Origin: an uncultured Actinomycetes bacterium
GTDB taxonomy: Bacteria; Actinomycetota; UBA4738; HRBIN12
Assembly (NCBI GenBank): GCA_963794065.1
Contig: CAWCDA010000042.1
Span: 143,861 to 207,860 of the forward strand
Length of the DNA: 64,000 nt
Direction of reading: 5' to 3'
The translations under genes were made by a program, and so were the position numbers. How positions within the stretch are numbered: the stretch's first letter is position 1; every line of letters begins with the position of its first letter. A model generated the notes under the pieces. It was not told the DNA's origin. It made no database searches and saw nothing but the letters and a program-made list of their open reading frames with translations. This document shows positions 2,937 to 17,735 of the stretch, piece by piece.

Positions 2937-4368
2937 ATGCACGCAAACCTGATCGCGGGCGACTGGGTCGAGGCCCCCGCCGCCGTCGAGGATCGCAATC
3001 CCTCCGATCTATCCGACGTGATCGGTGAGTACGCGTCGGCCGACGCCGCGCAGACCGACGCCGCGATCGATGCCGCCGTCGCGGCGGCGCCGGGCTGGGC
3101 CGCGGCGACACCGCAGGAACGGAGCGCGGCGCTTGGAGACCGTCGGGCTCGAGCTCGCCGCGAGGGCCGAGGAGCTCGGGGAGCAACTCTCTCGGGAGGA
3201 AGGGAAGCCGCGGGCCGAGGGGATCGGGGAGGTGCAACGCGCGTCCCAGATCTTCCGGTTCTTCGCGGGCGAGGCGCTCCGCGTGCCGGGCGAGCACGTC
3301 CGCAGCGTGCGCCCGGGCGTCGACGTCGACATCCTGCGCGAGCCGCTCGGGGTGGTCGGCATCATCACGCCGTGGAACTTCCCGATCGCGATCCCGGCGT
3401 GGAAGATCGCACCTGCGCTGGCGTACGGGTGCACGGTCGTGTGCAAGCCCGCCGAACTGGTCCCCGCAAGCGCGTGGTCCCTGGCCGAGATCATCTCGCG
3501 CTCCGGCGCGCCCGAGGGCGTGTGCAACCTGGTGATCGGGCCGGGCCGGGTGGTCGGCGAGCGGCTGGTGCACGATCCGCGCGTGCGCGGCGTCACGTTC
3601 ACCGGCTCTCAGGCTGTCGGCGCCGGCGTCGCGACGGGGCTGGCCGCGCGGTTCGGTCGCGCCCAGCTCGAGATGGGCGGCAAGAATCCGCTCGTGATCC
3701 TCGACGACGCCGACCTCGACGTCGCGGTGGACTGCGCGATCCAGGGGGCGTTCTATCAGACCGGACAGCGGTGCACGGCGAGCAGCCGGCTGATCGCGAC
3801 GTCGGGCATCCACGATCGCTTCGTGGAGGCGACCGTCGAGCGCATGCGCGCGCTCCAGGTGGGTCACGCCCTCGCGCCGGGCACGCAGATCGGTCCGGTG
3901 GTCTCGGCCGACCAGCTCGCGCAGGATGAGGACTACCTCGCGGTGGGGGCCGAGGAGGGCGCCGAGCTCGCGTTCGGCGGGCGGCGACTCGAGCGCGATA
4001 CCGAGGGCTATTACCTGGAGCCCGCGCTGCTCGTCGAGACGCGCAACGACATGCGTGTGAATCGCGAGGAGATCTTCGGGCCGATCGCGACCGTCGTGCG
4101 CGCCGAGGATCCCGAGCACGCCCTCGCGCTCGCCAACGACACCGAGTTCGGATTGTCGGCCGGCGTGTGCACGACCTCGTTGCGGCACGCCGCACGCTTC
4201 CGCGACGCCTTGCAGGCCGGGATCGTGACGGTCAACCTGCCGACCGCGGGGGTGGACTACCACGTGCCGTTCGGCGGCACGAAGGGGTCCTCGAGCGGCA
4301 CGCGGGAGCAGGGCCGCTACGCGGTCGAGTTCTTCACGACGGTCAAGACGGCCTACGTGCGGCCGTGA
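2937..4368 (+). CDS. NAD(P)-dependent aldehyde dehydrogenase with an apparent 1-nt frameshift near 3133-3136
   Basis: The N-terminus in the 2937 frame reads MHANLIAGDWVEAP...PQERSAAL. The rest lies in ORF 3025..4368: LETVGLELAARAEEL..., ITPWNFP, ELGGKNP-like LEMGGKNP, QRCTASSRL (catalytic Cys), EEIFGP. The two parts join if one base is removed at CTTGG, 3132-3136. Confidence 0.8.
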
Positions 4369-4420: not shown

Positions 4421-5071
4421 GTGACCGTCGACGCCCTCGCGCCCGTCGTCTTCCTCGCCGCAGCCCTCCTCGTGCTCGCCGGTGTGGTCAAGGTGGTCCG
4501 CCCGCGCGCGACCGCGCAGGCGCTCCTGGATGCGGGATTGCCGGGGTCACGCGCGGTCGCGCGCGGGATCGGGGCCGTGGAGATCGCCACGGGTGTCTGG
4601 GCGGTCGCGGCGCCGGCCGCAGGGGGCGCGCTCGCGCTCGGGGTCGTGTACCTATCGTTCGCGGGTTTCCTGGGCTACGTGTTGGGCGTGCATCCCGAGG
4701 CCGGGTCGTGCGGGTGCGCCGGCCCGACCCCCGTGCCACCGAGCCGCCTCCATCTCGTGCTGAACGTCCTCGCGGGCGTGGCGGGTCTGGCGTATGCGAC
4801 GACCATGGCGCCATCCCTCGGCGCATGGGTCGGGACGTTGGACTGGGCCGCCGCGCCGATCGTGGCCGGGCTCGCGCTCGCCGGGTGGCTCGCGGTAGTG
4901 GCGGTCACCGAGGCGCCGGCCGCGTTCCGTTCTTGGGAGCGCCCGACGCACGATCACGACGCGGAACCGCATGGCCATGATCACGCCGTCGCGGACCACG
5001 AGCTTGCGACCGCCGGCATCGGCCCCGGGCACCCGAGCCTGTGGCCGGGCACGAAGCCGGAGCCCGAGTGA
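4421..5071 (+). CDS. MauE/DoxX-family redox-associated membrane protein with a His/Asp-rich C-terminal tail
   Basis: ORF 4421..5071 has four or more hydrophobic helices, a conserved-looking SCGCAG segment, and the tail THDHDAEPHGHDHAVADHE. The family call comes from memory of the MauE architecture plus the MauD-like and MauA-like neighbours. Confidence 0.6.
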   Translation: MTVDALAPVVFLAAALLVLAGVVKVVRPRATAQALLDAGLPGSRAVARGIGAVEIATGVWAVAAPAAGGALALGVVYLSFAGFLGYVLGVHPEAGSCGCAGPTPVPPSRLHLVLNVLAGVAGLAYATTMAPSLGAWVGTLDWAAAPIVAGLALAGWLAVVAVTEAPAAFRSWERPTHDHDAEPHGHDHAVADHELATAGIGPGHPSLWPGTKPEPE

Positions 5072-5640
5072 GCGCGGTTCTCGACCTGGCGACGCGCGCC
5101 GTCTCGCCACGCGCGACGCGCCGCGGCAGGGTCGCCGAGGCCGCCAGCGCCCTCGCGGTCGCGCCGATCCGGTTCGCGACGCGACCGGTTTCGGCGGATG
5201 CCGTCGTGCGGAAGAGCTGCGCGAGCTGTCCGGGGGGCAGCCGCTGCTGTGGCTCCTACACCGCGTTCTGCTGCACGCTGCCCGGTGGCGACAACTTCGG
5301 ATGCCCGCCGAACACGTTCGTCGGCGGTTGGTGGCAGTGCAACTACGGCGGCACGAACCTCTGCAGCACGACGAACATGCGCTACTACCTGGATTGCTCG
5401 ATCAACCCGGGCGCGTCCTGCCCCGGCGGGTGCCACTGCGGCAACGACGACTGCACGAACTTCAAGACCTGTTGCGTCGTATTCCGCTACGGACAGTGCA
5501 ACACGGACATCCCGTACGTGACGCCGATCCAATGCCGCTTGATCACGTGCGTGATCCCGTGTCGGATCGACTGCCTAGACTGCGACTGCTCCTCGGCCGT
5601 CGATCAGCACACGTGCCTGCACGAGGCGGGATGTCTGTGA
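5068..5640 (+). CDS. secreted cysteine-rich protein (25 Cys) resembling the methylamine dehydrogenase light chain (MauA)
   Basis: Start at GTG 5068, overlapping the upstream stop (GTGA). The N-terminus RATRRGRVAEAASALAVAP is signal-like. The mature part CCTLPGGDNFGCPPNTFVGGWWQCNY...YYLDCS resembles, from memory, MauA CDCSGGSLTNCPPGT...ASWVASCYNP...YRDCC. Confidence 0.55.
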   Translation: MSAVLDLATRAVSPRATRRGRVAEAASALAVAPIRFATRPVSADAVVRKSCASCPGGSRCCGSYTAFCCTLPGGDNFGCPPNTFVGGWWQCNYGGTNLCSTTNMRYYLDCSINPGASCPGGCHCGNDDCTNFKTCCVVFRYGQCNTDIPYVTPIQCRLITCVIPCRIDCLDCDCSSAVDQHTCLHEAGCL

Positions 5641-6290
5641 GCGTCGGCGCCCTGACCGCGCTGGTGATCGTGGAGACGATCGTGCTCGCGCTGCTCGCCG
5701 TCGTGGTCGTATCGCTCTTGCGGAGTCACGCCGAGCTGTTGCGGCGCCTTCCCGCACCCGATGACGAGCAGGAACATCACGCGCACGGCGCGGCCGTGCC
5801 GATCGAACGGACGCCGACGCTGTCCGCCTCCATTCCGGCTCCGAAGCGACAGGCATCCGAGGCGCATGACGTGGTCGGCACGACGCTCGGCGGCGACCAG
5901 GTGGTCGTCTCGGCCGCGTCCGGCAGCGACACGTTGTTCGCCTTCCTGTCGACGGGGTGCCTGACGTGTCAGACGTTCTGGGATGGACTGCGTCCGGGCG
6001 TCCGGCGACCGATGCCGGGAGACGCGCGGGTGATCGTCGTGGTCAAGGACCCGGCGTTCGAGTCGCCGTCGAAACTCGCGACGCTCGCGCCTCCCGACGT
6101 GCCCGTGATCCAGTCATCGCAGGCGTGGGAGGACTTCGGCGTCCAGATGTCGCCGTATTTCTGTTTCGTCGACGGACGCTCGGGCTCGGTCCGGTCGGAG
6201 GGCGCGGCGATGAGCTGGGAGCAGGTGTCGTCGCTGCTGACTGACGCGTTGTTTGACGAAGCGGCCGCGCGCGCCAAGGGGAGCGGATGA
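5631..6290 (+). CDS. membrane-anchored thioredoxin-fold protein (MauD/TlpA-like), CxxC = CLTC
   Basis: Internal Met 221 of ORF 4971..6290 starts MSVSVGALTALVIVETIVLALLAVVVVSLL (TM anchor). It continues ...LFAFLSTGCLTCQTFW...MSPYFCFVDGRSGSV. It overlaps the upstream stop by 10 nt. Confidence 0.75.
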   Translation: MSVSVGALTALVIVETIVLALLAVVVVSLLRSHAELLRRLPAPDDEQEHHAHGAAVPIERTPTLSASIPAPKRQASEAHDVVGTTLGGDQVVVSAASGSDTLFAFLSTGCLTCQTFWDGLRPGVRRPMPGDARVIVVVKDPAFESPSKLATLAPPDVPVIQSSQAWEDFGVQMSPYFCFVDGRSGSVRSEGAAMSWEQVSSLLTDALFDEAAARAKGSG

Positions 6291-6961
6291 GTCCGGTCGT
6301 CGCCGTGGGGCTCGGGGTCGCGATCGTGGCCGGCCTCCGATCGACCTGGTCCCCGTGAGGCGTGTCGATGCTGGGGAGCATCACTCCGCTCGGGGAGCGG
6401 AGCCGCGGATCGAGGTGGTGGGTGACCGCGACGGCCTACCTCGTCGGGTCATCGGTCGGCGGCGCGCTGTTCGGCGGGATCGTGGCAGCGATCGGGGTGG
6501 CGATCGGCGTCGCGGGCTGGGCGACGAGCGCGCGGCTCGCGACGATCGCGCTCGCCTTGGTGATCGGTCTCGCGCTCGACCTCGGCGTCGGCGGTCTCCG
6601 ACTGCCGAGCGTCCGCCGACAGGTCGACGAGGAGTGGCGCGGCCGCTACCGCGGCTGGGTCTGGGGGCTCGCGTTCGGGTTCCAGCTGGCCCTCGGTGTG
6701 GTCACGATCGTGACGACGTCGACCGTCTACGTCACGTGGCTGGCGGCGTTGCTGAGCGGATCGGTGGCGGGAGGAATCGCGATCGGCGCCCTGTTCGGGT
6801 TCGCACGGGCCGTGCCCGTGTTTGCGGTCGCGGGCGTGCACACCCCGCGACAGTTGCTCGGGGTGGATACGACGCTGCGGCGCTGGGCCCGCCCCGCGCG
6901 ATCGGCCGCGTACGCGGCGGCGGGCGCGCTCGCAGGGGTCGCCGCGGCGGTGGCGCGATGA
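6287..6961 (+). CDS. polytopic membrane protein with an in-frame TGA at 6356-6358 (candidate Sec or Cys position in an xSP[C/U] motif)
   Basis: ATG 6287 overlaps the upstream TGA (ATGA). There are 23 codons, MSPVVAVGLGVAIVAGLRSTWSP, then TGA, then the same frame continues as ORF 6362..6961 (about 6 TM segments, no Cys). If the TGA is a true stop, the CDS is 6362..6961. Confidence 0.5.
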
Positions 6962-7410
6962 CGCAGCTGCGTGGCCACGGGCTCGCCTTGACCGTGCGCC
7001 GGGGATGGGAGGCACGGATCTGGCTGCCCGATGCGCCGCCGCCCGCGGAGAACCGTCCGGTGATGCGCCTCGCGAACTTCGCGCTGCCGTCCACGAAGGA
7101 CACGTACGCCGAGAACGTCGCCGACGAGCTTCGGCGGGGGCAGGTCGTCGCATCGCTGGTGGAGTTCGCGCCGCGGCTCGCCGATCGCGGGCTCTACGCG
7201 CCGCAGGGCGTGCCCGCGTTCGACCTTGAAGATCTCGATCCGCGCGCGGTGCAGCGTCACCTGCCGGGACGATCGGGGCTGCAGCGGTTCTTCTCCGTGC
7301 GCGGGCGTGCGTTCAGTCTGTACGTGATCGCCCGCGACGGCGACGGCTTGCGCGCCACGTTGCGGGAGCTCCATACGCAGCTGCTCGCCCTGGTGGTGGA
7401 GCCTGCGTGA
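6958..7410 (+). CDS. hypothetical protein within the redox operon
   Basis: ATG 6958 overlaps the upstream stop (ATGA). The C-terminal 150 aa of ORF 6253..7410, MTQLRGHGLALTVRRGWEARIWLPD..., has ordinary amino-acid composition. I recognise no family. Confidence 0.5.
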   Translation: MTQLRGHGLALTVRRGWEARIWLPDAPPPAENRPVMRLANFALPSTKDTYAENVADELRRGQVVASLVEFAPRLADRGLYAPQGVPAFDLEDLDPRAVQRHLPGRSGLQRFFSVRGRAFSLYVIARDGDGLRATLRELHTQLLALVVEPA

Positions 7411-8003
7411 GCGCGGCCGGCTGGATCGTGGCGGCGGTGCTCGGCGCTGCGCTCGTGTGGCTCGGTCTCGCGTTGTCGGGCGCGGTGCGAGAGCTCGCCA
7501 CGCTTCGGGAACGGGTCGACGCGCTCGAAGGAGTCGTCGCCCCGATCCATCTCGATGGGGGGCTCCCGATCGGCAGCGCCGAACCGGCCTGGTCGCTGAC
7601 CGCACCCGACGGGGCCGTGGTGCCGTCGTCGCTGCTCGAGGGCAGGCGACACCTCGTGCTGTTCGCGGACGCCGAGTGTCGCGCGTGTGACGAGGTCGTG
7701 CCCGATGTGGTCCGGGCGGCCGCGGCAGGCACGCTGCCCCCACTCGCCCTGGTCGGCCGCGGCCGCCCGGACGCGACGCCCGCGGCCTGGCGCGCCGACG
7801 ACCGTGCGCGCGTGGTGGCCGGCGTCGAGCGGGACCGCGACGTGAGCGACGCGTTTCGCGTCGAGGTGAGCCCGCACGTGTTCGTGATCGACGAGGGCGA
7901 CGCGGTGGTGGCCCAGGGCAGCGCCGCGACGCTCGCCGACGTCGAGGCGCTCGTGCGTGGCGCACAGGGCATCCGCATCGTTCCGGGAGCCACCGGTGGC
8001 TGA
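7407..8003 (+). CDS. membrane-anchored thioredoxin-fold protein, MauD-like, CxxC = CRAC
   Basis: ORF 7407..8003 starts at a GTG overlapping the upstream TGA. It has a TM anchor, then RELATLRERV, GLPIGSAEPAWSL, LVLFADAECRAC and VSPHVFVIDEGDAVV. This matches the MauD layout recalled from Paracoccus MauD. Confidence 0.7.
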   Translation: MSAAGWIVAAVLGAALVWLGLALSGAVRELATLRERVDALEGVVAPIHLDGGLPIGSAEPAWSLTAPDGAVVPSSLLEGRRHLVLFADAECRACDEVVPDVVRAAAAGTLPPLALVGRGRPDATPAAWRADDRARVVAGVERDRDVSDAFRVEVSPHVFVIDEGDAVVAQGSAATLADVEALVRGAQGIRIVPGATGG

Positions 8004-8262
8004 CCCGATCACGCGCCGCGGTTTCGTCACGAGGGCGACCGGCCTTGCGCTCGCGAGCGTAGGGGTTGCCGCCGGGCTCGGCCGCGACCGGGCGTTCGCC
8101 CATGTGAAGCCGTCGCCGTGCCGGGTGCGTTGCGAGCCGATCAGCCGAACCGGCTGTCTGTGCGGCGGCAACCTCTACCGCTGCTCCGGGTGCGGGGATA
8201 CCTTCCACGCGTGCATCGACCGGGACCGGTTCGGCTGGTTCTGTCTTCGTCGGGCGTGCTAG
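7996..8262 (+). CDS. small Tat-signal cysteine-rich secreted protein (10 Cys in about 53 mature residues)
   Basis: GTG 7996, in the frame of ORF 7957..8262, gives VADPITRRGFVTRATGLALASVGVAAGLGRDRAFA (twin-arginine signal). The mature part is HVKPSPCRVRCEPISRTGCLCGGNLYRCSGCGDTFHACIDRDRFGWFCLRRAC. Confidence 0.6.
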   Translation: MADPITRRGFVTRATGLALASVGVAAGLGRDRAFAHVKPSPCRVRCEPISRTGCLCGGNLYRCSGCGDTFHACIDRDRFGWFCLRRAC

Positions 8263-9607: not shown

Positions 9608-9690
9608 GCCCGGGTGCCGGAACGGTAGACGGAGGCGCCTTAAAAGCGCTCGCTCGAAAGAGCGTGTGGGTTCGACTCCCACCCCGGGCA
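9608..9690 (+). tRNA. tRNA-Leu (anticodon UAA), 83 nt, no encoded CCA
   Basis: Manual cloverleaf. The acceptor stem GCCCGGG pairs with CCCGGGC. The anticodon stem is GGCGC/GCGCT with loop CTTAAAA. There is a long variable arm CGCTCGAAAGAGCG. The T arm is GTGGG-TTCGACT-CCCAC and the discriminator is A. Confidence 0.9.
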
Positions 9691-9761
9691 CGGAACACGT
9701 ACGCGGGTCGGCACCGCAAGGGTTGAGCCAGGCTCCCGTCGTTCCTCGGTAGGCTGGCGCC

Positions 9762-10618
9762 GTGACCGCCGACAGGCTGCGTTCCTTGTGGGACTTCGAC
9801 GATCTCGGGGTGACCGAGACGCGCCTGCGAGCGCAGCTGGACGACGAGACCACCGATGCCGGGCGCGCCGAGGTCCTGAGCCAGCTCGCGCGGGTCGAGG
9901 GGTTGCGAGGCGCGTTCGACGCCGCCGATCGGCTGCTCGACGACGCGGTGGCGCTTGCGGGCGACGACGAGGTCGCCGGGGCGCGGATCGATCTCGAGCG
10001 GGGGCGCACCCGCCGGTCGAGCGGCGATCCGGAGGCCGCGCGCCCGCTATTCGACGCCGCGTTCGCGGCCACGATCGACGCCGGCCAGACCTTCATCGCG
10101 GTCGATGCGGCGCACATGGCAGCGCTCGTCGCACCCGACCGCGACGGGTTCGTCGCGTGGACCGAGCGGGGATCGAGCTGGCCGGCGGCGAACGAGGATG
10201 CCCGCTCCTGGCTCGGCCCGCTCTTCAACAACATCGGATGGGAGTACTACGAGGCGGGGGAGTTCGAGGAGGCGCTCACGGCGTTCCGGCGAGGGCTTGC
10301 GGTCCGCGAGGAGGCGTCGGAAGAAGGGCAGTCCGTCGAGATCGCCCGATATGCGGTCGGGAAGGCCCTGCGCGCTCTCGGAAGGTCCGACGAGGCGGTA
10401 CCGCTGCTCGAGAGGGCTCTCGCGTGGACCGAGGCGGCGGCGCACCCGACGGCTGGTTCCACGAGGAGCTTGCCCTGGAGTACGCGGCGCTCGGTCGCGA
10501 TACGGACGCAGCGTTGCAGGCGCGTGCGGCGATCCCTTTGCTCGAACGCGACGATCCCGACTTCGCGTCGGACGATGAGCGGAGCGGCGAACTCAGGAAG
10601 ATCGCAGCGGCCGAGTAG
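9762..10618 (+). CDS. TPR-like repeat protein with an apparent frameshift near 10440
   Basis: ORF 9762..10670 is plausible up to ...LERALAWTEAA. It then continues in the frame of ORF 9788..10618 as APDGWFHEELALEYAALGRDTDAALQARAAIPLLERDDPDF.... It has a helical-repeat composition (NIGWEYYEAGEFEEALTAFRRGL). Confidence 0.5.
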
Positions 10619-15092: not shown

Positions 15093-17735
15093 ATGCAGAT
15101 GGGATCCGTGGTCTCGACGAGGGAGCGACGAGCATCGATCCTCGGCTCGGGGGTCGTGCGCGTCTGGTGCTTCATCGCCGTCATCGCGCTCGCATCCGCG
15201 GGGGTCTGGGCGTTCAACCTGTCGCACTTCGGCACGCTGAGCACACCGGGCGCGAACGCCCTTCCCTGGCCGCTGCTCGCCGTCGTCTTCTACCTCGCGG
15301 AGACCTACGTCGTGCACCTGCAGTTCCGCAAGCAGGCCCACACGCTCTCGGCCTCCGAGATCGGTCTGACCGTCGGCCTGTTCTTCGTCTCGCCGATCGG
15401 TCTGCTCGTGGCCCAACTGGTCGGCACGGGCATCGCGATCGTCGTGCATCGGCGGCAGAAGGCGATCAAGCTCTGGTTCAACCTGGCCGAGGTCTCGCTC
15501 GCCTGCGGTCTCGGGCTGCTGGTGTTCCGGTCCTCGTCGACGGAGGGAGCATGGGTCCCCAGGCGTGGGCGGCCGCCCTGCTCGCGGCCGGCGGTCGCGC
15601 ACACGTGCGGCGTGCTCTTGGTGACGGCCGTGATCGCGGTGGCGGAGGGGCGTCTGGTCGCACCGCAGCTGCCGCGCACGCTGGCCGTGTCGTTGGTCGG
15701 GGCGCTGTCGGCCTGCTGTCTCGGTCTCCTCGTGGTCGAGCTGGTCGTGAAGGATCCGCCTGCGCTGCTGTTGGTGGCGCTCCCGTTGCTCGCGTGCGGG
15801 GTGTCGTTCCGTGCGTACATGATGCAGCGCGAGCAACGGGAGCGTGTCGAGTTCCTGTACGAGTCGATGCGCGCGACGCAGGGCGCGCCCGAGTTCGGGC
15901 TTGCGGTCGGCGAGCTGTTGGTCGCGGCGCGCCGGCTCCTCCGCGCGGAGTACGCGGAGATCCTCCTGCTGTCGCCGATCGCCGGCGAGCCGGCGCTGCG
16001 CAGCACCAGCGGGCCGGAGGGGGAGGTCCTGATGCGGCGGGAGAGCCTGACGCGCGGCGACGACCTCGCGCTCGAGGTGGCGTCCGGCGCCTCGCGCCCG
16101 GTGTTGTTGCCGCGGCGTCGCGCTCCACACCCGCTCGACAGGCTGCTCACGTCGCGCGGCCTCGAGGACGCGATCGTTTGCACGCTGAACGATGAGGATC
16201 GGGTGTTCGGCCTGCTGCTCGTCGGCGACCGGGTCGGGGACGTCAGCACGTTCGCCGATGAAGACCTCGGCCTCTGCGAGACGTTCGCGGGCCATGCGAG
16301 CGTGCTGCTGGAGAACGGTCGTCTCGAGCGTTCGCTCGCCCAGGTGACCGAGCTCACCGAAGAGCTGCACCACCAGGCCTATACCGACGCGTTGACCCAA
16401 CTCCCGAACCGGTTGCTGTTCGCGGAGCGCCTGGGCGAGACGCTCGAAGGCGGCGATCGGCGCACGCACGCGGTGCTGTTCCTCGATCTCGACCGGTTCA
16501 AGGTCGTGAACGACAGCTGGGGGCATGCCGCCGGCGACGACCTCCTCGTGCAGGTCGCGCAGCGGATCCAGGGCGCCGTCCGCCCACAGGACACGCCCGC
16601 CCGCCTGGGCGGCGACGAGTTCGCCGTCCTCATGCGCGACACGGATGCCGCCGGCGCGATCCACGCGACCGAGCGCCTGATCGATCTCATCAACGCCCCG
16701 ATCTCGTTGTCTTCCGGCCACCAGGCGACGGTGCACGCGAGCGTCGGCGTCGCCGTCACCGGCCCCGACGCCTCGACCCCCGAGGAGTTGCTTCGCAACG
16801 CCGACCTCGCGATGTACACGGCAAAGACCGAGGAGCGCCCCTACGCGCTCTTCGAGCCCGCCTTGCACCACCGCATCCGCGATCGCCGATCGCTCGCCCT
16901 GGAGCTCGAGCAGGCCGCGGAACGGGGCGAGTTCGTCGCCTACTACCAGCCGGTGGTCTCGCTGGTCGATGGCACGATCCAGGCGTTCGAGGCGCTCGCT
17001 CGCTGGCAGCACCCCGAGCGAGGGCTGCTCGAGCCGGCCGAGTTCCTGAGCGTGGCGGAGGAGACCGGATTGATCTTCGAGGTCGGCGCCAGCGTGCGGT
17101 CGCAGGCGCTGCGGTCCGCGGGCCGCTGGCCCGACGCACACGCCGAAGCCGGGAACCTCGGCCTCTGGCTCAACGTCGCCCCCGGTGAGCTCACCGACGA
17201 TCGTCTGGTTGAAGACCTGGCGCTCGCGATGACGCGCTCCCATGTCGACGCCCGACGCGTCACGGTTGAGATCACGGAGTCGACCGTCATCCGGGACGAG
17301 TCCGGCGCCTTGCGCGCGATGCATCGGCTGCGCGACCTGGGATTGCAGCTGTCGATCGATGACTTCGGCACCGGCTACTCGTCGCTGTCGCGTCTCGCGG
17401 AGTTCCCGATCGAGCTCCTGAAGATCCCGAAGCCGTTCGTCGACCGCCTTGTCGGCCCCGATGCCGACCAGACGTTCGTCGATGCCATCCTGCGGCTCGC
17501 GGGATCGCTCGGTCTCGTCTCGACGAGCGAGGGCGTCGAGCACGTCGGTCAGGCGCGCGCGTTGCGCGATCTCGGATGCGGGCTCGCGCAGGGATTCCTG
17601 TTCGCTGAACCGATGACCGGCGAGAGCGTGTTCCGTCTCCTGCGGAGCAGCGCAGCGCATCGGGGAGCGCCCACGCTTCCCGCCGCGCGCTCGTTCGCGC
17701 GGTCCTACGAGCCGTCCGCCGTCGCGTCGTCCTAG
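15093..17735 (+). CDS. membrane-bound GAF-like / GGDEF / EAL protein (c-di-GMP synthesis and hydrolysis)
   Basis: ATG 15093 ([11 protein letters not shown]) lies in the frame of ORF 14712..17735 and is preceded by AGGCGGAAGG. It has about 8 TM helices, an intact GGDEF (RLGGDEFAV) and EAL motifs ([20 protein letters not shown]). Confidence 0.85.

Follow-up and report, generated by a model that had tools for sequence, protein, structure and literature searches.

The question raised by the 64,000-nucleotide (nt) stretch of DNA described here, from contig CAWCDA010000042.1 of an uncultured Actinomycetes bacterium (assembly GCA_963794065.1, positions 143,861 to 207,860; the whole stretch is referred to as the window), is whether an in-frame TGA codon close to the start of a gene for a small membrane protein terminates translation or encodes selenocysteine (Sec). 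A preliminary description of the window had proposed a Sec codon at what would be a Cys position, followed by a hairpin resembling a bacterial selenocysteine insertion sequence (SECIS). This proposal was supported by the occurrence of TGA at the same place in all 83 distinct loci compared, by homologues with Cys at the site, and by linkage of the gene to genes of the Sec machinery. From these comparisons the window gene at 6287-6961 is probably a selenoprotein gene with UGA 6356-6358 as its Sec codon (probability about 0.87), and the family to which it belongs can be regarded with high confidence as a selenoprotein family.

In the window, an ATG at 6287-6289 opens 23 codons (MSPVVAVGLGVAIVAGLRSTWSP), the last of them encoding R-S-T-W-S-P, before the in-frame TGA at 6356-6358 is reached. 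The same frame then continues for 200 codons to a stop at 6959-6961, such that the joined product has 224 residues, none of them Cys, and Sec would be encoded by codon 24. The initial ATG shares the nucleotides ATGA with the TGA stop (6288-6290) of the upstream gene, which encodes a thioredoxin-like protein, and three other junctions in the operon are of the same 4-nt type (GTGA at 5637, ATGA at 6958 and GTGA at 7407). The reading frames, the absence of Cys and the overlapping junctions had all been noted in the preliminary description and were confirmed on the sequence. The closest relative, at locus L006 (individual loci are given by L numbers), encodes a protein 88% identical to that of the window, and the nucleotide sequences are 91% identical over 16.9 kb.

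A search of 5.8 billion proteins gave more than 2,000 relatives (clusters at 90% identity), of which 120 were listed, and an exhaustive search of 1.84 billion cluster representatives was made with the 197-amino acid (aa) part downstream of the TGA as the query, the best 150 being examined. The DNA sample was drawn from 5 metagenomic places and from 80 species genomes, the best of at least 572 that encode a relative; it came to 86 sequences, corresponding to 83 distinct loci and about 80 species of Acidimicrobiia, Thermoleophilia (Gaiellales and Solirubrobacterales) and Actinomycetes. The isolates included were Pedococcus ginsenosidimutans, P. bigeumensis, Pedococcus sp. 5OH_020, Kineosphaera limosa and Angustibacter sp. 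McL0619.

In the databases the relatives are short, with 179-202 aa in all 120 listed and 195-202 aa in nearly all of them, and 14 of the 15 inspected begin with the strongly conserved peptide MLGSITPLGER(G/S)RGSRW. Their annotated start is a Met four codons past the TGA, equivalent in the window to the ATG at 6368-6370, which lies inside the 5' arm of the first of two hairpins downstream of the TGA. Short forms are also given by RefSeq for P. bigeumensis (WP_140740063.1) and K. limosa (WP_006591737.1), both as "sulfite exporter TauE/SafE family protein", and for Angustibacter sp. McL0619 (WP_426563056.1) as "hypothetical protein". That homologues might lack the N-terminal helix, as the preliminary description had considered, was not borne out, because the DNA of these database-short homologues encodes the helix and W-S-P in frame upstream of the TGA.

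At the codon four positions before the called Met, TGA was found in 86 of 86 sequences, and TAA or TAG never. Among the other stops of the same operons TGA accounts for 271 of 305 (0.89), and against this frequency its presence in 83 of 83 distinct loci has P ~5e-5, phylogeny being ignored. All loci have an in-frame hydrophobic helix and the motif R-(S/A)-(T/S/A)-W-S-P ahead of the TGA, with the N-terminal segment masked in L045; in this locus, from a Dermatophilaceae metagenome-assembled genome, a run of N (~9890-9983) stands right before W-S-P-TGA and the segment is unreadable. The Trp of W-S-P is invariant, and third-position entropy upstream of the TGA is far above that of positions 1 and 2. 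The invariant Ser and Pro are each written with four codons, positions 1 and 2 being fixed and the third having an entropy of 1.75 and 1.65 bits, respectively, and such synonymous variation at invariant residues argues for coding selection, i.e. translation, in this frame upstream of the TGA. A start codon was found 21-28 codons before the TGA; it is in a 4-nt overlap with the upstream stop in 50 of 78 loci and no more than 20 nt from that stop in a further 18.

An N-terminal extension, of 28 and 29 residues, was present in only two of the 150 best cluster representatives (P0240 and P0252). These proteins read FRSSWSPCGESMLASINP and FRATWSPCGQSMLSSLTP across the site, with WSPCGESML and WSPCGQSML, and their DNA (L086 and L087) has TGC exactly at the TGA codon. 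The aligned column, which the preliminary description had proposed for inspection, holds TGA in the 83 loci and a Cys codon in these two uninterrupted homologues. The codon at the called start is ATG or GTG in 85 of 86 sequences, with CTG instead in L043. Since the Met at this place is retained in both uninterrupted Cys forms, it is internal to the protein rather than its start. In the lineage of the window, the TGA, the helix and both hairpins are kept across proteins that are 59-88% identical.

The preliminary description had also suggested looking for the Sec machinery, and in relatives this was found. A tRNA-Sec gene was detected with ARAGORN in the fetched flanks of L017, L031, L042, L056 and L073, and all five were confirmed by Rfam (65-82 bits, threshold 47). 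In P. bigeumensis S9.3A a compact cluster of selB, selA, selC and selD follows directly after the cassette that includes the gene (L056:12682-16661), its SelD having Cys, not Sec, in the GGGCACK motif. A cluster of this kind also adjoins the cassette in L017, L031, L042 and L073. Using the Sel proteins of this strain in tblastn, sel genes were located no more than 10 kb from the gene in 9 of 80 species loci (L017, L031, L034, L039, L042, L056, L066, L067 and L073); among them are Pedococcus strains and a genome of Solirubrobacterales, and at least three separate lineages with differing arrangements are represented. In Pedococcus genomes, SelA named as such by RefSeq is on the same contigs as the gene; neither Angustibacter nor Kineosphaera was among the matches listed for a search with Pedococcus SelA. 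The linkage with sel genes is hard to account for if the gene is not a client of the Sec machinery.

Two hairpins downstream of the TGA had been placed in the preliminary description with exact coordinates (Table 1), and both are also formed in the minimum free energy and centroid folds of the window sequence. When the 83 loci were aligned over 69 nt, counted from the TGA, no gaps arose, and the RNAalifold consensus of this alignment consists of these same two hairpins. In hairpin 1 (columns 12-17 with 22-27) 99.2% of cells are paired, and in hairpin 2 compensatory changes occur: pair 30-46 is CG in 57 loci, UG in 14 and UA in 9, pair 34-42 is CG in 76, UA in 4 and UG in 1, and the outer pair 29-47 is CG in 36, GC in 18 and unpaired in 27. 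The switch at pair 34-42 combines a change of Leu CTC to Phe TTC with the synonymous change of GAG to GAA (L025, L051, L053 and L072). Covariation as high as that observed was reached in 0 of 500 shuffles, and when the structures were slid by 1-3 columns pairing fell to 34-51%.

As the hairpins lie in coding sequence, synonymous sites provide the stronger test. Within the stems (codons are numbered from the TGA), Ser +3 is TCG in 82 of 83 loci, Ser +7 is AGC and Pro +10 is CCG in 83 of 83, Leu +11 is CTC in 74 of the 76 that have Leu, and Arg +14 is CGG in 80 of 80. Third-position entropy is 1.44 bits at Leu +5 and 1.61 bits at Gly +12 in the loops, and in the flanks it is 1.78 bits at Gly +1 and 1.65 bits at both Arg +16 and Arg +19. 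Synonymous sites that are frozen in the stems and free in loops and flanks point to selection at the RNA level on both hairpins. Hairpin 2 is disrupted in both Cys forms, which are two cases only (CCGGTGACCGAACGG and CCGGTCGGCGAGCGC); one of them has a central mismatch in hairpin 1, and the other retains this hairpin intact.

In the bSECISearch model the loop lies 16-37 nt from the UGA and opens with a G. Hairpin 2 fits this description better, its loop being GGN in 82 of 83 loci and beginning 33 nt past the UGA; that of hairpin 1 begins 14 nt past the UGA and has no conserved base. Hairpin 1, however, occupies the place of the minimal SECIS element of Escherichia coli. Judged from the alignments, hairpin 2 would be the likelier SelB-binding element, and both hairpins may be needed. 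Of the earlier proposal that hairpin 1 is the SECIS element, the part that stands is a conserved structure downstream of the UGA, while the comparative data favour hairpin 2, or both hairpins together, over hairpin 1. An extension of hairpin 1 around a bulged C, also proposed earlier, was ruled out, its 3' partners being variable (AC, AG, CA, AA, TC and GT). A 4-bp helix closing both hairpins is part of the minimum free energy fold of the window and was discarded, being absent from the consensus structure.

If the TGA were a real stop, the gene would be split into a membrane peptide of 23-28 aa ending in WSP and a 197-aa protein made by re-initiation at the ATG 9 nt further on, the two assembling in the membrane. 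The 195-200-aa form given by all gene callers and RefSeq, the ATG or GTG at the called start in all but one sequence and the general use of TGA as a stop in these operons would all agree with such an arrangement, but it is unlikely, as it explains neither the position of the break, which coincides exactly with the codon for Cys in the uninterrupted homologues, nor the total absence of TAA and TAG, the genes for Sec machinery beside the gene in nine genomes, or the synonymous constraint and compensatory changes in the downstream stems. The called ATG is moreover buried in the stem of hairpin 1, it is present in the Cys forms as well, and it is replaced by CTG in L043; a split gene would also leave a family devoid of any redox residue inside a cassette in which all else is concerned with thiol redox.

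Readthrough without Sec, with the UGA read by a near-cognate tRNA (e.g. that for Trp or Cys) and the hairpins acting as stimulators, is less probable still. A conserved downstream structure could in principle have this effect, and no Sec machinery was found within the 64 kb of the window; however, the gene is linked to selC, selA, selB and selD, the residue at the site in the uninterrupted homologues is Cys and not Trp, and where genes of this operon overlap, UGA terminates translation in the usual way. Finally, the window does contain at least one 1-nt indel with respect to its closest relative (near 3133), and the TGA could have arisen by decay of the gene or by misreading of TGC or TGT. The gene is otherwise intact and is 88% identical to that of L006, and 82 further loci, assembled independently and including isolates, have TGA at this codon, so this explanation is refuted for practical purposes.

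The gene belongs to a conserved five-gene cassette encoding a MauE-like protein, a secreted-type Cys-rich protein, a thioredoxin-like protein with CxxC, the protein considered here (the Sec protein) and a protein of 150 aa. When C was written for U, the window protein matched the Pfam family DsbD_2 (PF13386) with E = 2.9e-5 and 24.5 bits (cut-off 24.9), its residue 12 being aligned to profile position 2. Precomputed matches to PF13386 are recorded for 35 of the 120 listed homologues and to PF02683 for one, and of the Cys forms P0252 scored 18.8 bits against DsbD_2 and P0240 had no match. There was no NCBIfam match to the window protein at E <= 0.1 and no match among Protein Data Bank (PDB) sequences even at E <= 10. 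In the AlphaFold model of the Cys form, which is a confident one (predicted local distance difference test (pLDDT) 91.5, predicted template modelling score 0.86), the first helix ends at the Ser-Pro break, and the Cys, right behind this break, begins a short helix. No other Cys is conserved in the Sec protein, 44 of 82 proteins having none at all, and the alignments contain no conserved cluster of His, Cys or Met. A role as metal transporter, suggested by the UniRef name "UreH-like", was considered less likely, given the lack of such a cluster and the fact that every identifiable neighbour is of the thiol-redox type. From the genomic context we infer that the Sec protein is a transmembrane or intramembrane thiol/disulfide exchanger that serves the folding of the Cys-rich protein.

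Several results weigh against a Sec codon in the window gene or against this function. Neither tRNA-Sec nor selA, selB or selD was found in the 64-kb window sequence, and a search with the SelA of L034 matched none of the long contigs of the window's clade; against the machinery not being located in this lineage stands its retention of TGA, helix and hairpins. Folded alone, the window sequence gave z = -1.43, and 19 of 200 shuffles folded equally well; this is unexceptional for a sequence so rich in G+C, and the question was therefore settled by comparison across genomes. At gathering thresholds Rfam gave no match in the window, and a permissive scan of 6300-6480 returned only chance-level matches and no SECIS model. 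Hairpin 1 has no compensatory change among the 83 loci, and part of the conservation of the hairpins is at the protein level, both being in conserved coding sequence. A Foldseek search of PDB with the model of the Cys form gave nothing at E <= 0.001 and did not retrieve CcdA, which leaves the Pfam sequence matches as the sole basis for homology with CcdA/DsbD, and the link to the DsbD family is weak. We know of no citable precedent for a relay with a single redox residue.

With a Sec codon as the preferred reading, translation would start at ATG 6287 and be coupled to termination of the preceding gene, that of the thioredoxin-like protein with CxxC, and SelB together with Sec-tRNA(Sec) would decode UGA 6356-6358 as Sec under the direction of the two adjacent hairpins immediately downstream. 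Hairpin 2, whose GGN loop is conserved, would be the likelier of the two to bind SelB, and hairpin 1 would lie where the mRNA channel begins. The Sec would be located right after the Ser-Pro break in the first membrane helix as the only conserved redox residue. The protein might then help the Cys-rich protein to fold by relaying reducing equivalents or exchanging disulfides, either across the membrane or within it, and a selenenylsulfide with a CxxC partner would replace the Cys-Cys pair used by CcdA. A lone Sec with no resolving Cys would, if true, amount to a shuttle between selenolate and selenenylsulfide with CxxC partners, unlike the two-Cys cascade of CcdA/DsbD, and if sulfur can replace selenium only poorly, the ratio of Sec to Cys forms of roughly 70 to 1 would be accounted for. 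It is a tentative and rather doubtful extension of these ideas that the family, working as a single-selenium transmembrane relay, is the main and perhaps the only reason why many aerobic soil Actinomycetota (Gaiellales, Solirubrobacterales, Acidimicrobiia and Intrasporangiaceae) keep the Sec machinery.

Table 1 Positions in the window of the Sec-protein gene, its RNA elements and the neighbouring genes.
Feature	Position	Strand	Remarks
MauE-like membrane protein	4421..5071	+	PF07291, E = 2.8e-12, 47.5 bits (cut-off 27); near the Sec-protein gene in 54/82 loci
Cys-rich protein, presumed substrate of the cassette	5041..5640	+	Nearby in 72/82 loci
Membrane-anchored thioredoxin-like protein, CxxC (CLTC 5958-5969)	5631..6290	+	Weak Thioredoxin_2 match; adjoins the Sec-protein gene upstream in 78/82 loci
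Full gene of the probable selenoprotein	6287..6961	+	224 codons and stop; multi-pass membrane protein, distant relative of DsbD_2 (PF13386)
N-terminal segment left out by gene callers	6287..6355	+	Start codon, first hydrophobic helix and R-S-T-W-S-P; conserved in frame
UGA, inferred Sec codon	6356..6358	+	TGA in 83/83 distinct loci; TGC in Cys forms L086 and L087
Hairpin 1	6367..6382	+	GATGCT-GGGG-AGCATC; 6 bp, variable tetraloop, begins 8 nt past UGA
Hairpin 2	6384..6402	+	CTCCGCT-CGGGG-AGCGGAG; 7-8 bp, GGN loop 6392-6394; better SECIS candidate
150-aa protein	6958..7410	+	No evident transmembrane helix or signal peptide, no Cys in the window copy; ATGA-coupled; immediately downstream in 78/82 loci
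Second membrane-anchored thioredoxin-like protein (CRAC), distantly MauD-like	7407..8003	+	TIGR02661, E = 2.9e-8, 33.4 bits (cut-off 188.6)
Small Cys-rich protein	7957..8262	+	Hydrophobic N-terminus containing RR; 11/82 loci, window's clade only

The other genes of the cassette are listed in Table 1. In the thioredoxin-like protein encoded upstream of the Sec protein the CxxC motif is kept in 76 of 78 loci. The Cys-rich protein, in which the matched stretches contain a median of 23 Cys, belongs to no Pfam family, and a search of PDB sequences gave chance matches only; in Pedococcus (L056:11139-12692) it is fused to five LGFP repeats. The LGFP repeat is a cell-wall-associated repeat, and this role would suggest that the Cys-rich protein is extracytoplasmic, wall-anchored and disulfide-rich. 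No Pfam or NCBIfam family was found for the 150-aa protein, and its structure predicted from the single sequence (pLDDT 36) was unusable. The second thioredoxin-like protein matched Thioredoxin_2 with E = 6.7e-4 and was found in 13 of 82 loci, all in the window's clade. Both thioredoxin-like proteins begin with an uncharged N-terminus and one hydrophobic helix followed by a cluster of Arg (5631-5740 and 7407-7520), and under the positive-inside rule a cytoplasmic location of their redox domains, rather than one outside, is possible; were this true, it would change which side of the membrane donates electrons to the Sec protein.

A rearranged cassette was seen at the Cys-form locus L086 (985-4552), where an upstream gene for a 225-aa protein overlaps the Cys-form gene by 4 nt and genes for a fasciclin-domain protein, a MauE-like protein and a 517-aa protein with DUF346 repeats lie downstream. 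Two contigs labelled as from other phyla, L011 (JBLMXP010000087.1, Planctomycetaceae) and L037 (CAXMPS010000438.1, Gammaproteobacteria), carry typical actinobacterial copies of the gene, with neighbours in L011 of the type found in the window's clade; they are probably mis-binned and not members of the family from outside Actinomycetota. Among the proteins, P0121 (290 aa) has an internal duplication of ~95 residues and P0023 (198 aa) diverges abruptly at its C-terminus (RRARRSCSAWTRPCGAWPARRDRS), where its relatives are conserved, and both look like assembly or indel artefacts of metagenomic contigs. Elsewhere in the window, tRNA-Leu(UAA) and tRNA-Ser(CGA) genes were found at 9608-9691 and 16955-17046, and one extra base near 3133 (GCGCTTGGAG versus GCGC-TGGAG in L006) leaves an aldehyde dehydrogenase gene in two frames (open reading frames 2937-3929 and 3025-4368). 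This extra base has the look of a sequencing error in a homopolymer, or else of a frameshift of recent origin, and is in keeping with the preliminary description, in which the other resolvable gene disruptions of the window are given as indels of 1 nt.

In every public annotation seen, the first membrane helix and the residue taken here as catalytic have been cut off, and many entries would need correction. Estimates of selenium use in soils could change, and the family is a candidate reason for the retention of selABCD in abundant soil lineages. A DsbD-like protein with a single redox residue also poses the testable question of how reducing power crosses the membrane, and cultured carriers of the gene are P. 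bigeumensis S9.3A, P. ginsenosidimutans JCM 18961, K. limosa NBRC 100340 and Angustibacter sp. McL0619.

In CcdA and DsbD (PF02683, PF13386; "cytochrome c biogenesis protein transmembrane region") the first membrane helix has a redox residue immediately behind a Pro. Like them, the Sec protein is a small multi-pass membrane protein, and the window gene has neighbours encoding membrane-anchored thioredoxin-like proteins with CxxC. However, CcdA/DsbD have two redox Cys in separate helices, whereas the protein of the window would have a single Sec and no conserved Cys, and the partners of the former in cytochrome c maturation differ from the MauE-like, Cys-rich and 150-aa partners in the window cassette.

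The orthology group K07090 comprises TauE/SafE-type membrane proteins, a name that some sources also give to the truncated homologues described here. Machine-predicted selenoprotein candidates matching K07090 were reported from Actinomarina (49 genomes; bioRxiv 10.64898/2026.04.03.716425), and these may be of the same or a related family, though the report gives no motif, SECIS, operon or distribution.

An inventory published in 2026 lists 119 prokaryotic selenoprotein families (PMC13188914); the family described here is not among them, none of them has PF13386, PF02683 or a W-S-P-U motif, and the words "sulfite", "UreH" and "Actinomycet" are absent from the text of this review. Among the nearest entries is TsoB (NF045694), given as a rhodanese/DsbD fusion-like selenoprotein with UxxxxU (PMC13188914, Table 1). 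The likeness lies in the description of TsoB as DsbD fusion-like, but it has two Sec and a rhodanese domain, while the window protein would have a single Sec (W-S-P-U-G), has no rhodanese domain and did not match NF045694. In the other near entries of the same inventory, which are predicted membrane-transport selenoproteins, namely the MerT-like proteins (PF02411), YeeE/YedE (PF04143, GUxSG) and the SO_0444 Cu/Zn efflux transporter (NF033936, UxC), Sec likewise stands in place of Cys in a transport-type protein; these are other families with other motifs, unmatched by the window protein, and the family described here is without the conserved metal-binding clusters of Cys or His expected of a metal transporter.

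For the neighbouring genes, the closest parallel is with the mauE/mauD clusters of Streptomyces, for which a role in modifying precursors containing 8 or more Cys has been proposed (PMC7794033); no selenoprotein is mentioned in the passages on mauE and mauD. As there, a MauE-family protein and a distantly MauD-like thioredoxin are encoded beside the gene of a very Cys-rich protein. The window differs from the mau clusters, whose mauE and mauD are accessory genes for the maturation of methylamine dehydrogenase, in that no methylamine dehydrogenase subunit was found in Pfam and PDB searches, and the match to MauD is far below the cut-off. No description of the family was found in the literature on selenoproteins with MauE, TauE, DsbD or the carrier taxa, and it is thus an apparently undescribed family within a known kind, that of bacterial selenoproteins with UGA and SECIS. 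Within this kind the family is unusual, being widespread in aerobic soil Actinomycetota, with Sec forms that far outnumber the Cys forms and with a single redox residue.

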